64,000 nt of DNA from a virus (Duplodnaviria; Caudoviricetes): IMG/VR virus record IMGVR_UViG_3300005686_000008; one strand, written 5' to 3'. Both the position numbers and the translations under genes were made by a program. Every line of letters starts with the position of its first letter. The stretch's first letter is position 1. Shown here piece by piece: positions 5,029 to 51,293 of the stretch. The notes under the pieces are model-generated. The model ran no database searches. It saw only the letters and a program-made list of their open reading frames with translations, and was not told where the DNA came from.

Positions 5029-5366
5029 ATAAACAACAATCAATACAATCCCTATTCCTTGATATCTGCGAAGATGCATACAACCAGGGATTGTATATGT
5101 TTGGCATACTATCTTCAACAAGAAAAGGGCCGGAGCATCCAATGAGACAGCCCGGCTATTTTTACAATAGGCTTAGCGAAGAAGTAAAAGAAAGAATAAG
5201 AAACGAACTAAAGCCAGAGCATATGCAGTCTCTTCTTTACAAGTTTGTTGCTTGGGGGCCTGTTATCCCTTGGGAAGAACAAAGAATCTTAGACGCCAAA
5301 GACGGTTTCAAACGAGAAAAACTGAAGTTTGAACTAGAGTTAATGAAGCACGGTTGGCGTCCATAA
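5025..5366 (+). CDS. hypothetical protein
   Basis: ATGA overlap. Confidence 0.6.
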   Translation: MNKQQSIQSLFLDICEDAYNQGLYMFGILSSTRKGPEHPMRQPGYFYNRLSEEVKERIRNELKPEHMQSLLYKFVAWGPVIPWEEQRILDAKDGFKREKLKFELELMKHGWRP

Positions 5367-5389
5367 TTAAATAATACCTGACAAGGTAA

Positions 5390-5432
5390 ATTGCGCAATT
5401 ATTTGTATACTTACAAATGGAGATTGCGCAAT
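5390..5432 (+). promoter_or_regulatory. hairpin sequestering RBS and start codon of tail-fibre gene
   Basis: ATTGCGCAAT-T-ATTTGTA-TACT-TACAAAT-GGAG-ATTGCGCAAT(G) inverted repeat. Confidence 0.6.
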
Positions 5433-12658: not shown

Positions 12659-13717
12659 ATGGCAATACTTGAATATTTGTGGTTAGATGGTTACGCTCAT
12701 AATGAAGAACATCCTCAAGATGTAGCAAACATTCGTTCCAAAGTAAAAGTTATTGAAGGCAATAAGATAGGAAGTATTGAGGATCTTCCTCTTTGGAGTT
12801 TTGACGGTTCTAGTACCATGCAGGCTTCTGGCAATAAAAGCGATTGCCTATTGAAGCCTGTTTTTGTTTGTAATAATCCTTTGCGTTTTTCTTCTAGTCA
12901 CTCAACTCATATTGTGATGTGCGAAGTTTTAAATGCGGATGGAACTCCGCATAAAAGCAATGCTAGAGCAAAACTGACTGAAGTATGGAATAAGCATAAA
13001 AAACATAAGATGTGGTTTGCTCTAGAACAAGAATATGCAATCTACGATCAATATGGAGAGAATCCTTATATGTGGCCAGATAATGGTTATCCCTCTCCGC
13101 AGGGTCGTTATTATTGCGGCGTTGGCTCTGATGTTGCTTGGGGACGACAAATAAGCGATGAACATCTTGAGGCTTGCATTGATGCCGGACTGCCAATATC
13201 AGGCACGAACGCAGAAGTTATGCCTTCTCAGTGGGAATATCAAATTGGACCTAGCGAGGCTCCAACAATCGCAGACCAACATTGGGTTTCTAGGTTCTTG
13301 TTAAATCGTATTGCTGAAAAATATAAGGCTACTATCAAGCTTGACCCAAAGCCAGTCAAGGGGGATTGGAATGGAACTGGTTGTCATATTAATTTCAGCA
13401 CTGAAGAGATGAGAAAAAATCTCAACATTCAAGATGTTGAAATCATTTGCAAGGCATTGGAAAACAATATTCCAAAACATCTTTCAATGTATGGCAAATG
13501 CAATGAACAAAGACTGACTGGCAAGCATGAAACCTGTTCTATTCATCAGTTTAGATACGGAGATGCAGATAGAGGCGCTTCTATTCGTATTCCGCCAGGC
13601 GTCCTAAAGGCTGGCAAGGGGTATTTGGAGGATAGAAGACCTGCCGCAAATATAGACCCATACGAGGCTTGCATGGTTCTTATGGATACTGTTTGCGGAG
13701 TGTATCAGCCTTCTTGA
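12659..13717 (+). CDS. glnII: glutamine synthetase type II
   Basis: EYLWLDG, WSFDGSST, EQEY, PQGRYYCGVG, NAEVMPSQWEYQIGP, GDWNGTGCH, RLTGKHET, RGASIRIP, YLEDRRPAAN. Confidence 0.95.
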   Translation: MAILEYLWLDGYAHNEEHPQDVANIRSKVKVIEGNKIGSIEDLPLWSFDGSSTMQASGNKSDCLLKPVFVCNNPLRFSSSHSTHIVMCEVLNADGTPHKSNARAKLTEVWNKHKKHKMWFALEQEYAIYDQYGENPYMWPDNGYPSPQGRYYCGVGSDVAWGRQISDEHLEACIDAGLPISGTNAEVMPSQWEYQIGPSEAPTIADQHWVSRFLLNRIAEKYKATIKLDPKPVKGDWNGTGCHINFSTEEMRKNLNIQDVEIICKALENNIPKHLSMYGKCNEQRLTGKHETCSIHQFRYGDADRGASIRIPPGVLKAGKGYLEDRRPAANIDPYEACMVLMDTVCGVYQPS

Positions 13718-13741
13718 CTTGTGAAATTTACCGACTACAAT
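13714..13741 (+). promoter_or_regulatory. sigma70-like promoter for RNase P RNA
   Basis: TTGACT-16 nt-TACAAT, ending 7 nt before P1. Confidence 0.6.
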
Positions 13742-13747
13742 AGATAA

Positions 13748-13959
13748 GACAACAAGGTTCGATCTATCGCTCTACCCCGTAAGGGATGAGAGGAAGTTCG
13801 CGACTGCACCACCTACCGTTGGAGGCCTAAACAGCCGTTCGGACAACGTAAGCAGCAACTCAAACAGTCTGAGAGCGTCGGTGGCTCTATGAGGACGGGT
13901 TGAGGCCATTAGAGAAATGATAGAATAGAACAGAATCGCGGCTACGGAATCTTGTTGTT
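13748..13959 (+). ncRNA. rnpB: minimal RNase P RNA
   Basis: P1 GACAACAAGGTTC/GAATCTTGTTGTT; CR-I GAGGAAGTTCGCGAC; CR-V AACAGAATCGCGGCTAC (P4-type pairing); P2 TCTATC/GATAGA; T-run after. Confidence 0.8.
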
Positions 13960-14036
13960 TTTTATTTCATTGTGAAGGAATTGGCGATGCTCCGATAGAA
14001 ATACGAAATAACCCATGTTAACGCAGGAGACCGATA

Positions 14037-14354
14037 ATGAGCGCCATACTTTACATTGACACAACAGATAAAAACGTTTACTCTTTCCTTCCAGATGTTA
14101 CTGGTAAGGCAGTTATCGGTCTCGATTTGCCGCCTGGCGTTCCTGTTCAACTGCTTATAACTCAAGTTCAAGCCTTTATAGCAGGAATAACTCGATTCCC
14201 TATTCCTGTCATAATTAAGGCAACGTTTGCAGATCCTCCGATGCCTCCTCCGCCAAGCCCATCTCCAAGTCCGGCTCCTGAACCTTCCCCATCTCCAAGC
14301 CCGGCTCCTGAGCCATCACCATCTCCGTCTCCTTCCCCAAGTCCTGCTCCATAA
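14037..14354 (+). CDS. hypothetical protein with Pro-Ser-rich tail
   Basis: SD AGGAG; PSPSPSPAPE repeats. Confidence 0.65.
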   Translation: MSAILYIDTTDKNVYSFLPDVTGKAVIGLDLPPGVPVQLLITQVQAFIAGITRFPIPVIIKATFADPPMPPPPSPSPSPAPEPSPSPSPAPEPSPSPSPSPSPAP

Positions 14355-17242: not shown

Positions 17243-18502
17243 ATGAACGTCACGGCAGTCATTGGCGCTAACTTCGGAGATGAAGGCAAGGGCCTAATGA
17301 CCGATTATTTCAGCGATAAAAAGACTGTCGTGGTACGACATAATGGCGGAGCGCAGGCTGGACACACTGTTGTTACTCCTGATGGTATTCGCCATGTATT
17401 TAGTCATTTTGGTAGCGGTACTCTTGCGGGTGCCGCTACCTTTCTTGGCCCTCGCTTTATTATCAATCCTCTTCTCTGGAAGAAAGAATTGGGGATTCTA
17501 AAGAAGATGGGTTTTGACCCAAAGGTTTTCTATGCTGGCGGGCTTGTAACCACTCCGTATGACATGCTAATTAACGAAGAGATCGAACGGTCTCGCGGAG
17601 ATGGTCGTCATGGCTCTTGCGGCGTTGGGATTAATGAGACAGTAACCCGTCATTATTCGGAAAAGTTTGCTTTTCCTCGTCTTAGGATTGACTCTAAGTG
17701 TAATATCCTGACTCGCAATAAAATTGTCAATACCGTAAAAAATATTCGCGACGAATATTGCGCTGCTCGCATCAAGGAGATTGGACTTTCTCCCAAGGCT
17801 TCATTCTACAGTATTTTCAATTCCGAAGCCTTACTTGAACGTTATGTTGACAATGTTATTGAGTTTGCCGAGCATTGCATCGAAATCAACACGGATGCCC
17901 AGGGTCTTAGAACTATGGGCATTCATCTTGGCGGCGAAGTCAATAACCTTGTGTTTGAAGGAGCGCAAGGTCTCCTTCTTGATGAAGAGCATTATTTCTT
18001 CCCTCATGTAACTAGAAGCAAGACTGGCCTAAATAACGTTCTTGATATTTGTCGCCAGTTTGAAATTAAAGAGGCTGATGCAACTTATGTTACTAGAGCG
18101 TATATGACCCGTCATGGACAAGGCCCATTTCCTAGCGAAGAAAAAGAACTCAAGTACGAAGATAAGACAAATGTTACTAATGAGTTTCAGGGAAGCCTTC
18201 GTTTTGGCTCTCTTGATGTTGACCTTACAAGCAAGGCTATTAGGAACGATCTTATCCTAGCTAGCGATAGGTTCTTTGAGCATACTGGTTGGGAACCCAT
18301 CAAGGTAAATCCTTCAATAGCTATTACCTGTCTTGATCAGGTCGGAAAAGAGATTTGTGTTTATGATGATGGAGAGAGATTTACTCTCAATGATGTTAAT
18401 GATCTGGTAGATATTTTTGTTGATAAGTGTAATATCCATGATTTTTATACAAGTTATGGCCCAACAAGAGCAAAAATATCTCCTCTATGCGTTGGAAAGT
18501 AA
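17243..18502 (+). CDS. purA: adenylosuccinate synthetase-like protein
   Basis: GANFGDEGKG, GGAQAGHT, FEGAQGLLLD, PHVTRS, RAYMTRHGQGPF. Confidence 0.85.
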   Translation: MNVTAVIGANFGDEGKGLMTDYFSDKKTVVVRHNGGAQAGHTVVTPDGIRHVFSHFGSGTLAGAATFLGPRFIINPLLWKKELGILKKMGFDPKVFYAGGLVTTPYDMLINEEIERSRGDGRHGSCGVGINETVTRHYSEKFAFPRLRIDSKCNILTRNKIVNTVKNIRDEYCAARIKEIGLSPKASFYSIFNSEALLERYVDNVIEFAEHCIEINTDAQGLRTMGIHLGGEVNNLVFEGAQGLLLDEEHYFFPHVTRSKTGLNNVLDICRQFEIKEADATYVTRAYMTRHGQGPFPSEEKELKYEDKTNVTNEFQGSLRFGSLDVDLTSKAIRNDLILASDRFFEHTGWEPIKVNPSIAITCLDQVGKEICVYDDGERFTLNDVNDLVDIFVDKCNIHDFYTSYGPTRAKISPLCVGK

Positions 18503-19336: not shown

Positions 19337-19410
19337 GCCCCCGTAAGCTCAATGGTAGAGTTAGGAGTCTCTAAAACTCTTTGTTGCAGGTTCGAGTCCT
19401 GCCGGGGGCG
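19337..19410 (+). tRNA. amber suppressor tRNA, anticodon CUA
   Basis: Acceptor GCCCCCG/CGGGGGC; D arm GCTC/GAGT; anticodon arm GGAGT-CTCTAAA-ACTCT; T arm GCAGG-TTCGAGT-CCTGC. Confidence 0.85.
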
Positions 19411-27853: not shown

Positions 27854-27947
27854 CTCTTTTGGTGCTTTGCTTTTTAGTAGACGCCGACTAAACTTTCTAT
27901 CTCTAACTGAATGGTGTCTCAGCAGACAAACATTGAGGATATACCAA

Positions 27948-49402: not shown

Positions 49403-49525
49403 GCGCCTGTAGTGTAATGGCTAGCACGCTAAAACATCCTGACCAATTACTTACCGAACAGGTCGAACGGAAAGGGTTATCTCTATATCCCAGAGGTAGT
49501 TTGGGTTCGAATCCCAACGGGCGCT
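49403..49525 (+). ncRNA. tRNA-like Y RNA (YrlA-like, circularly permuted)
   Basis: Acceptor GCGCCTG/CGGGCGC, D arm GTG..TAATGGCTAG..CAC, T arm TTGGG-TTCGAAT-CCCAA; anticodon arm replaced by CTTACC-GAACA-GGTCGAACGG module. Confidence 0.75.
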
Positions 49526-49585: not shown

Positions 49586-49592
49586 ATTGCAA

Positions 49593-51293
49593 ATGGCAAA
49601 CTATGGAAAGTTGACTGGTTCTCTTAGCTCCAAGACCCCAAAGGCTACCCCTCAGACGGTACAGACTCCTGGAACCGTTCAGAATAACGCCGGTGGTTTC
49701 GTTTTTGAGATTAATAAGTGGGACCGCCTGGACCGCTTCCTGATCCTCGGTACGGATGGGGCAACCTATTACTGTACTGAGCGCAAGATGACTCTTGATA
49801 ATGCTAAGAACGTTATTGAGTGCATTAAGGAGGATGGTCTGCGCACCGTTCAGCGCATCGTTGAAATCAGCGATGCTGGTCGCGCTCCAAAGAACGACCC
49901 TGCCTTGTTTGCTCTTGCGCTTTGCGCAGGTCATGATTCGGCTACGCCCGAGACTCGTCGCGCTGCTCTTGCTGCGCTTCCGAAGGTTGCTCGTATTGGA
50001 ACTCACTTGTTCCAGTTCGCGCACTTCGTTGACGGTTTCCGTGGTTGGGGTTCTGGTCTTCGTAACGCTATCGCCAACTGGTATAACGGTATGAAGCCTG
50101 ACCGCTTGGCTCTTCAGGTTGTCAAGTATCCTCAGCGCACCGCAGAAGAGGGTAACTCCAAGTCTTCCTGGTCGCATGATGACTTGCTTCGCAAGTGTCA
50201 CGCAAGGGGCGACGAGCTTCACAATATGATCTATGCTTATGTAACTCGCGAAGGCAAGTTGCCTGACCCTGTACCTGAGCAGCTTGTTATCCTTGAGGGT
50301 GCAAGCAAGATCAAGGGTCAGACTAACCCGAGCATCGTTGCTTCTCTTGTCGAGGAGTACCAGCTTCCTCACGAGCTGATCCCGAAGGAAGTCGCTAACG
50401 ATCCGAAGGTATGGCAGGCTCTCTTGCCTCACATGCCTATCACCGCTACTATGCGCGTTCTCAACCGCCTTACTTCGTATGGAGTTCTTAAGCCGTTCTC
50501 CAGCGAACTCAAGATGGTTACTGAGCGCTTGACCAACGTTGAGCAGATCAAGAAGGGTCGCGTTCACCCGTTGGCCGTTCTTGGCGCTCTCAAGACTTAC
50601 TCCGCAGGTCGCGGAGTTCGCGGAAGCCTTACCTGGTCGCCAATCGCCCAGGTATCTGACGCTCTCAACGAGATGCTTTACCTTGCGTTCGACGCAATCG
50701 AGCCAACTGGTAAGAACATCCTTTTGGGTCTTGACGTTTCTGGTTCTATGACCGGCGGTAGCGTTGGTGGACTTGACTTCGTTACGCCTCGCGAGGCATC
50801 TGCTGTTATGGCGATGGTTACGGCGCGCAGCGAAAAGAACTGGCACGTTATCGGCTTCACTTCTGGCGGATATTCCTACGAGAAGGGAACTTCTGGTAGG
50901 TATGGTTTCGGCGGGAACTACGGAGTTACCGAAATCAATATCAGCCCGAAGGACAAGCTTGATACGGTTTGCAACAAGATTGAGAAGCTTCCAATGGGAG
51001 GTACTGATTGTGCCCTGCCGATCATGTATGCTCTTGAGAAGGGTCTTAATGTTGACGCCTTCGTTACCTACACGGATAACGAGACTTGGGCTGGTTCTAT
51101 CAAGCCTCACGAGGCTTTGAAGATGTATCGCAATCAGCGTAACCCGCAGGCGAAGGTGATTGCGGTTGGTATGACGGCTACGGAGTACAGCATCGTTGAC
51201 GAGAACGACGCAGGTTCTATGAACTTCGTTGGATTCGACACGAGCGCCCCGGCTCTCATGGCGGACTTCATCCGTAAGGATTTGCGCCGCTAA
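49593..51293 (+). CDS. rsr: Ro60/TROVE-domain RNA-binding protein (Rsr)
   Basis: NNAGGFVF..RFLILGT.G.TYY, RIGTHLF.F..RGWG, LLRKCH, MPITATMRVL, vWA LDVSGSM, GGTDCALP, TDNETW, GFD; SD AAGGAG. Confidence 0.95.
   Translation: MANYGKLTGSLSSKTPKATPQTVQTPGTVQNNAGGFVFEINKWDRLDRFLILGTDGATYYCTERKMTLDNAKNVIECIKEDGLRTVQRIVEISDAGRAPKNDPALFALALCAGHDSATPETRRAALAALPKVARIGTHLFQFAHFVDGFRGWGSGLRNAIANWYNGMKPDRLALQVVKYPQRTAEEGNSKSSWSHDDLLRKCHARGDELHNMIYAYVTREGKLPDPVPEQLVILEGASKIKGQTNPSIVASLVEEYQLPHELIPKEVANDPKVWQALLPHMPITATMRVLNRLTSYGVLKPFSSELKMVTERLTNVEQIKKGRVHPLAVLGALKTYSAGRGVRGSLTWSPIAQVSDALNEMLYLAFDAIEPTGKNILLGLDVSGSMTGGSVGGLDFVTPREASAVMAMVTARSEKNWHVIGFTSGGYSYEKGTSGRYGFGGNYGVTEINISPKDKLDTVCNKIEKLPMGGTDCALPIMYALEKGLNVDAFVTYTDNETWAGSIKPHEALKMYRNQRNPQAKVIAVGMTATEYSIVDENDAGSMNFVGFDTSAPALMADFIRKDLRR

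Follow-up and report, generated by a model that had tools for sequence, protein, structure and literature searches.

A candidate minimal RNase P RNA gene of bacterial type in large phages

Introduction

RNase P RNA is a ribozyme that trims the precursors of tRNAs and counts as one of the hallmarks of cellular organisms. The present work deals with a short gene that likely encodes a minimal form of RNase P RNA descended from the bacterial type A, located on the plus strand of a 64,000-nucleotide stretch of viral DNA (Duplodnaviria, Caudoviricetes; IMG/VR record IMGVR_UViG_3300005686_000008). This whole stretch is referred to below as the window. Full-text searches of the literature turned up no description of an RNase P RNA encoded by a phage, and the RNA is not mentioned in the genome paper of Stenotrophomonas phage DLP6, one of the phages in which a relative was detected.

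The bacterial type A RNA (RF00010; M1 of Escherichia coli) shares with the window RNA the whole catalytic domain P1–P5, the P6 pseudoknot, P16/P17 and the J18/2 sequence UAGAnAAAUG. The two differ in the specificity domain (P7–P14), which comprises 157 nt in E. coli versus 38 nt in the phage RNA, in P15 (4 bp versus 3 bp) and in CR-I, where the phage RNA has two A residues before the G instead of three. Moreover, the RNA studied here is encoded by a phage, and the copy in the window is devoid of P18.

Among natural RNAs, the archaeal type T also has about 200 nt and has kept the catalytic domain while losing most of the specificity domain (PMC3579882). Its core is archaeal, with a P2 of 3 bp and a 2-nt linker between P5 and P15 (PMC3579882), whereas the phage RNA has a P2 of 7 bp, a 3-nt linker and bacterial P6, P16 and P17; the reduction in the phage RNA looks independent of type T. 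Catalytic domains engineered to lack the specificity domain still cleave, with reduced efficiency, according to PMC5839562, and the phage RNA amounts to a natural counterpart of such a construct (e.g., the E. coli CP RPR). Those ribozymes are laboratory truncations, whereas the phage RNA is a conserved gene with a stub made of a P7-like stem, GGAG and GUUnnnA.

The nearest viral precedent is the RNase P-like RNA of camelpox virus, a virus-encoded RNA resembling RNase P RNA that has been discussed as a possible decoy affecting the RNase P of the host only a little (PMC3001073). It differs from the RNA described here in belonging to a eukaryotic virus, in not being of bacterial type and in having no association with viral tRNA arrays. 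Finally, the theta (minimal HDV-like) ribozymes are also encoded by phages, lie beside phage tRNA genes and are tied to tRNA-based recoding, as described in PMC10879173. They are small, self-cleaving in cis and unrelated in fold, whereas the RNA of the phages is homologous to that of RNase P, which acts in trans.

Structure of the RNA

A single structured RNA gene was located in a 319-bp intergenic gap of the window (13718–14036). The original prediction, made from the sequence alone, had read this gene as a minimal RNase P RNA from its CR-I and CR-V motifs, the helices P1 to P3 and a P4 with compensatory changes, and had deduced that the specificity domain must be strongly reduced. All of these elements were found, including a specificity domain cut from 157 to 38 nt, and are listed below. 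The pairing values come from an alignment of 17 distinct sequences (MAFFT alignment A2) that was made without fitting to structure and on which the type A layout was then imposed; double changes are pairs changed on both sides.

13746–13961, plus strand: whole minimal RNase P RNA gene, bacterial type, about 210–216 nt, limits set by P1
13746–13760 with 13947–13961, plus strand: P1; the inner three pairs show 7–10 double changes each among the 17 sequences and are predicted independently by RNAalifold
13763–13769 (UCUAUCG) with 13918–13924, plus strand: P2, 7 bp, the bacterial length
13770–13790, plus strand: P3 hairpin with a GUAA loop; closing pair C13770-G13790 invariant
13790–13803, plus strand: CR-I, comprising J3/4 and the 5' strand of P4, GAGGAAGUUCGCGA; gapless on E. 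coli 61–74, U13798 corresponding to the bulged U69
13804–13807 (CUGC) with 13852–13855 (GCAG), plus strand: P5; 97.1% paired, double changes in 4/4 pairs
13810–13813 (CACC) with 13880–13883 (GGUG) in the P17 loop, plus strand: P6 pseudoknot
13814–13851, plus strand: 38-nt remnant left of the specificity domain, replacing E. coli 86–242
13817–13821 with 13844–13848, plus strand: P7-like stem of 5 bp; 88% paired, double changes in three pairs
13824–13836, plus strand: 3-bp stub hairpin within the remnant
13856–13858, plus strand: J5/15 linker with the sequence CAA, the counterpart of E. coli C247 A248 A249; both A residues invariant
13859–13861 with 13902–13904, plus strand: P15, 3 bp; 98% paired, double changes in 3/3 pairs
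13867–13896, plus strand: P16/P17; P16 89% paired
13897–13901, plus strand: L15 strand GGGUU; G13898, G13899 and U13900 are equivalent to G292, G293 and U294 of the E. coli CCA-binding site; GGU invariant
13910–13935, plus strand: J18/2 UAGAGAAAU, 3' strand of P2 and J2/4 AUAGAACAGAA (11 nt); most positions invariant
13936–13945, plus strand: 3' strand of P4 UCGCGGCU followed by AC, completing CR-V
13930–13945, plus strand: CR-V, ACAGAAUCGCGGCUAC

The long-range helix P4 consists of eight pairs which, in order, are A-U, G-C, U.G, then (after the bulged U) C-G, G-C, C-G, G-C and A-U; its length and the position of its bulge are the same as in the P4 of E. coli. Standard pairs were observed in 97.8% of its cells, and four of the pairs were changed on both sides; in the relative L002, for example, GCGA/UCGC is replaced by GACG/CGUC. 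Residues G39–G45 and U47 (core numbering from window position 13752) were invariant in the 17 sequences. When CR-V was tested on ACAGAAUCGCGGCUA, its length and conserved positions were those of E. coli 347–361. P2 was paired in 99% of the cells with double changes in five of six pairs, and RNAalifold added an invariant G.U as a seventh pair, while the length of P3 was highly variable across the family. The P6 pseudoknot is a feature of type A RNAs; double changes occurred in each of its four pairs, and the sequences contained six different pairs of complementary strands.

In what is left of the specificity domain, G13821, A13823 and G13824 (within GGAG) are invariant and a 7-nt strand, GUUCGGA, is kept; no CR-II or CR-III motif was visible by eye in 13814–13851. 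The stub is conserved in the family alignment, with the GGAG residues following the P7-like stem, a small hairpin whose loop is often of the GNRA type, and a GUUnnnA strand of 7–8 nt, and it could provide a tertiary contact or a residual contact with the substrate. As for P18, only about 5 nt separate the 3' strand of P15 from J18/2 in the window copy, and one or two hairpins occupy this position in the relatives L001, L003, L007 and L017.

The comparison of the catalytic core of E. coli rnpB with the window RNA gave an alignment free of gaps across the core elements, with the following correspondences.

E. coli 61–74 GAGGAAAGUCCGGG, window 13790–13803 GAGGAAGUUCGCGA: J3/4 and 5' strand of P4
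E. coli 75–78 and 243–246, window 13804–13807 and 13852–13855: P5, 4 bp in both
E. coli C247 A248 A249, window 13856–13858 CAA: J5/15 linker
E. coli GGCC AAAUAG, window CUC AAACAG: 5' strand of P15 and loop
E. coli 291–295 GGGUA, window 13897–13901 GGGUU: 3' strand of L15
E. coli 327–336 UAGAUGAAUG, window 13910–13919 UAGAGAAAUG: J18/2, identical at 8 of 10 positions
E. coli and window alike, 11 nt with ACAGAA at the end: J2/4
E. coli 353–360, window 13936–13943: 3' strand of P4

When the window RNA was folded by itself on thermodynamic grounds, the result was not distinctive (z-score −0.86); the pseudoknots are beyond such prediction.

Relatives and covariation

Searches of the GenBank phages with blastn detected the RNA in the published genomes LR756501/LR756503 (735 kb), LR745206 (634 kb) and LR756511 (595 kb) and in the cultured, T4-like Stenotrophomonas phage DLP6. 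The DLP6 copy occupies about 105774–106022 of KU682439.2; a stable RNA of about 245 nt is predicted from it, with a 3' end generated by RNase P at the adjoining tRNA-Arg. A pattern built on J18/2 and CR-V retrieved 25 IMG/VR contigs, and GAGGAA was present 116–197 nt upstream of the pattern in 24 of them, the exception being the weak match L013. These contigs, three GenBank loci and the window together provided about 20 distinct sequences.

The 52 proposed pairs, distributed over 11 helices, formed standard pairs in 88.7% of the 870 cells of the alignment, and this value dropped to 30–47% when the 3' partners were shifted by 1–3 columns. Changes on both sides were observed in 42 of the 52 pairs, and none of 500 shuffles reached the observed values. 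P1, the 7-bp P2, P5, the P7-like stem, P15 and P16 were also recovered independently by RNAalifold. The match of the window to this RNA family is far beyond chance.

A close comparison was offered by L015, a relative that is 91.7% identical to the window copy inside the RNA versus 37–55% in the flanks. The 20 columns that differ between the two inside the RNA correspond to loops and linkers, to compensatory pairs in P1 and P2, and to a single substitution of C by U in P17, where pairing is preserved as G.U.

The identification as RNase P RNA advanced in the original prediction was thus upheld by the match to the E. coli core, by covariation in every helix, including the pseudoknots P4 and P6, and by matches of RF00010 to two members of the family (see below). 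On these sequence comparisons, the window RNA is, with very high probability, a homologue of RNase P RNA.

The stable RNAs rnaC and rnaD of the T4 tRNA cluster were also considered and proved to be unrelated; they gave no match with the phage-derived covariance model described in the following section, even with filters off.

Searches with covariance models

A covariance model, R1, was built from the phage relatives only, spanning CR-I to CR-V. In the window it gave a sole match in 64 kb, at the RNA gene (148.7 bits, E 6e-39), and one copy was found in each of five carrier genomes. When applied to a 2-kb locus of E. coli, its top match was rnpB (17 bits, E 9e-5), with J5/15 through CR-V correctly aligned.

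The original prediction had proposed RNase P covariance models as a check, and here the outcome was divided. In Rfam cmscan, the window copy gave no RNase P match, either at gathering thresholds or at E values up to 10 on 13500–14200. This negative carries no weight, because the same cmscan also missed the DLP6 copy, which scored 54.7 bits (E 3.3e-17, model positions 1–367) when RF00010 was used directly. RF00010 also recognized the member in contig G007 (39.9 bits, E 1.3e-12), at coordinates in agreement with the R1 match. Both scores lie below the curated cut-off of 100 bits.

The archaeal models were tried as well. The best score of the model for archaeal RNase P RNA (RF00373) was 21.2 bits (E 1e-5), on G007, which is weaker than RF00010 and below its own cut-off of 84 bits. 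In the five carrier records tested, nothing was matched by RF02357, the model for type T, and neither the 7-bp P2 nor the 3-nt linker of the phage RNA is that of type T. Bacterial type A is therefore the best-fitting Rfam model. Loss of the specificity domain defeats full-length RNase P models, as was the case for archaeal type T before it had a model of its own (PMC3579882). Current Rfam models do not annotate the minimal RNase P RNA, and so it has gone unnoticed in phage genomes.

Flanking genes and signals

The gap that contains the RNA gene is bordered by two genes, and two putative transcription signals were found next to the RNA.

12659–13717: glutamine-synthetase-like gene with a short product (Pfam Gln-synt_C and Gln-synt_N), directly upstream of the gap
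13714–13741, plus strand: candidate sigma-70-like promoter, TTGACT and TACAAT separated by 16 nt, with 10 of 12 consensus positions
13958–13963, plus strand: run of six T residues, a possible transcription stop, overlapping the outermost pairs of the 3' strand of P1
14037: start of a small open reading frame (ORF), downstream of the gap

The candidate promoter predicts a transcription start at about 13747–13749, that is, at the first bases of P1. In L015 the −35 element and TAnAnT of the −10 element are kept, and this stretch is 72% identical, compared with 37–55% for the remaining flanks. The six-T run is not kept in L015, and a terminator scan of the plus strand revealed no hairpin of canonical form. 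Of the promoter and T-run announced in the original prediction, both sequences are present, and the promoter is no better than chance by count (see below) and the T-run has no hairpin.

The stretch is contained in four DNA sequencing runs from one study of bioreactor sludge, with no RNA runs among them. A megablast search of the GenBank phages with 11 kb around the locus gave no match.

tRNA genes and the protein partner

The association of the RNA with tRNA genes was analyzed at 20 related loci, and tRNA genes were present at 14 of them (13 without the weak match L013). In L003, L004, L005, L017, L022 and L025 the RNA lies only 0–16 nt from a tRNA gene on the same strand. These six copies are probably made from the transcripts of tRNA operons, and their 3' ends may be set free when RNase P cuts the tRNA that follows. 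The copy in the window is solitary and has the promoter-like site; an amber-suppressor tRNA lies 5.4 kb downstream and the main group of tRNA genes is 25–30 kb away. ARAGORN detected eight tRNA genes in the window, one of them the amber suppressor. The region is rich in genes related to translation, among them those for a class II aminoacyl-tRNA synthetase, a SpoU methylase and the Ro60 homologue listed below.

19337–19410: amber-suppressor tRNA gene, anticodon CTA, roughly 5.4 kb downstream of the gene for the RNase P RNA
49403–49525: tRNA-like element of 123 nt with a long insertion; Rfam tRNA 39.6 bits, not called by ARAGORN
49587–51293: gene for a Ro60 homologue (Pfam TROVE and vWA_Ro60), directly downstream of the tRNA-like element

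The last two features look like a phage pair of Ro60 and a YrlA-like Y RNA. Two tandem amber-suppressor tRNAs were also observed in L015 (5497–5648), in the same relative position as in the window, and one within the tRNA array of L025 (9933–10005). In the tRNA-rich regions of L012 and L025, tmRNA genes (1263–1644 and 5069–5412, respectively) stand beside the minimal RNase P RNA.

The protein partner, RnpA, was searched for in the carriers. In the 476-kb phage contig G001, a 99-amino-acid ORF with the RNR motif matched Pfam Ribonuclease_P (PF00825). This gene (L031 1498–1797, minus strand; G001:440379–440669) is 85 kb away from the minimal RNase P RNA; it is flanked by a ClpP-like gene and hypothetical genes of phage type instead of rpmH or yidC. 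An RnpA match was also obtained in LR745206, another carrier of the RNA, as an open frame of 115 amino acids at 76444–76752. This compact phage type of RnpA has 156 relatives in metagenomes, some of them on contigs of 481–642 kb.

Proposed function and alternative explanations

The origin of the gene from a bacterial type A RNA is considered likely, and the RNA would probably act as an enzyme in the 5' maturation of phage tRNAs, working together with RnpA. This reading, drawn from comparison of sequences, relies on the fact that the invariant positions (P4's bulged U, the equivalents of A248 and A249, GGU in L15, and J2/4) are sites of contact with substrate or metal ions and do not lie on the protein-binding surface alone, that some carriers encode RnpA, and that the RNA sits among tRNA genes. 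It also relies on the workable core seen in constructs made of the catalytic domain only (PMC5839562) and in archaeal type T (PMC3579882). A role in maturing the phage tRNAs, and possibly the tRNA-like RNA beside the Ro60 gene, was already suggested in the original prediction; for the tRNAs it gains support from the relatives lying in tRNA arrays and from the RnpA genes in two carrier genomes.

According to this proposal, the RNA of the window would probably have its own transcript, started by the promoter-like sequence at 13714–13741, and would bind RnpA supplied by the host or from elsewhere in the phage genome. The holoenzyme would then cleave the 5' leaders of the phage pre-tRNAs. The substrate would be held through contacts at the acceptor end, with the A248 equivalent at residue −1 (a contact proposed for A248 in PMC10465520), GGU in L15 at the CCA end and RnpA on the leader, and the tRNA elbow would not be read. 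The benefit for the phage would be a capacity for RNase P processing under its own control during infection.

Several observations weigh against an active, phage-controlled enzyme. The number of promoter-like sites found, one, is what shuffled sequence would give (1.1 expected, or about one per 700 bp). The RF00010 cut-off of 100 bits was reached neither by the window copy nor by any member of the family. The tRNA genes of the window have no encoded CCA, and the conserved GGU may engage only after CCA addition or may serve another role. The RNA has neither P18 nor a reader of the tRNA elbow, and it may therefore not equal the cellular RNase P in efficiency and specificity. With respect to the protein, the original prediction was right in seeing no rnpA: none was found in the 64-kb window by tblastn, phmmer or a profile of 120 phage-type RnpA sequences, with TAG taken as a stop or read through. 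RnpA was likewise not found in LR756501, LR756511, DLP6 or G008, nor in other contigs that are partial; the DLP6 and G008 records (the latter of 357 kb, with terminal repeats) are complete. Since rnpA was not found in them, most carriers would depend on the RnpA of the host.

This lack of rnpA in most carrier genomes is also what would be expected if the RNA were a decoy or sponge, which would bind host RnpA or compete with the host RNase P RNA and so lower the maturation of host tRNAs without being an enzyme. The high conservation of the protein-contacting P2/P3, J18/2 and J2/4 would fit such a role, and the camelpox virus RNA, as a possible decoy, would be its precedent in a eukaryotic virus (PMC3001073). 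A decoy, however, needs neither the bulged U of P4, nor the A248/A249 equivalents, nor GGU in L15, yet all of them are invariant. The RnpA genes of two carriers fit a holoenzyme rather than sequestration, and phages with large sets of tRNAs would damage their own tRNA supply, so that a decoy is considered quite unlikely. A functionless, decaying relic of a captured host rnpB can be dismissed with still greater confidence. The large deletion relative to cellular rnpB and the absence of an Rfam match above the curated cut-off would be compatible with decay, but the covariation contradicts it: in about 20 divergent copies, compensatory changes have preserved all helices of the core. With respect to L015, moreover, all substitutions are in loops or preserve pairs, mostly by compensation, while identity falls from 91.7% in the RNA to 37–55% in the flanks, and each of the five genomes checked has a single copy.

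Another alternative, to which a low probability is assigned, is a ribozyme that is active but acts mainly on RNAs other than ordinary pre-tRNAs. The candidates would be the tRNA-like RNA adjacent to Ro60, tmRNA precursors, polycistronic mRNAs or a subset of tRNAs such as the suppressors. Loss of the specificity domain removes the measurement of the T-loop and D-loop; the window contains both the Ro60/TROVE-adjacent element and an amber-suppressor tRNA, and tmRNA genes lie near the copies in L012 and L025. Nevertheless, ordinary tRNA arrays are the strongest genomic association, the elements that recognize the acceptor end are canonical, and no candidate other than tRNA emerged from any of the tests performed here. 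The maturation of phage tRNAs by an active enzyme is preferred.

If it is such an enzyme, this conserved RNA of bacterial type, reduced to nearly the catalytic domain alone, shows what a minimal functional core looks like in nature, and a trans-acting ribozyme joins the translation genes of large phages, which include tRNAs, synthetases and, in some genomes, RnpA. The existence of a cultured carrier, Stenotrophomonas phage DLP6, makes the activity, the protein partner and the contribution to fitness directly testable. A broader scheme is put forward only tentatively and is, on balance, doubtful: large phages would assemble an RNase P of their own from an elbow-blind ribozyme and phage or host RnpA, with relaxed or altered choice of substrates, and tRNA arrays, suppressor tRNAs and tRNA-like RNAs would be matured independently of the host RNase P. 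If true, this might affect the timing of translation and code switching late in infection, and the translation apparatus would then be acted upon in trans by a catalytic RNA of viral origin.

Other loci and genes

The J18/2–CR-V pattern was additionally used to scan genome contigs, which gave five loci. One of them, L034 (3679–3886), is on a contig binned as a Bacteroidetes metagenome-assembled genome (MAG) and scored 111 bits with R1; another, L037 (3425–3572), on a contig binned as an Opitutus MAG, scored 49 bits and lies within a dense tRNA array. Both may be phage DNA that was binned into MAGs. Two further loci were weak matches, in line with the one or two chance matches estimated for a pattern of such size. 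The locus L035 (1164–1427), on a 3.4-kb contig labelled 'uncultured archaeon', encodes an RNA of 264 nt that passes the archaeal RNase P model with 102.7 bits. This RNA scored 46 bits with the phage-derived model and has a CR-I with two A residues (GAGGAAGCUC) and the motifs UAGAcAAAUG and ACAGAA.

Together with the glutamine-synthetase-like gene, other auxiliary genes of the window form an unusual set; they encode a PARP-like protein with a WGR domain (27867–29525), a fusion of an APS kinase with a cytidylyltransferase-like domain (36395–37363) and an adenylosuccinate-synthetase-like protein (17243–18502).

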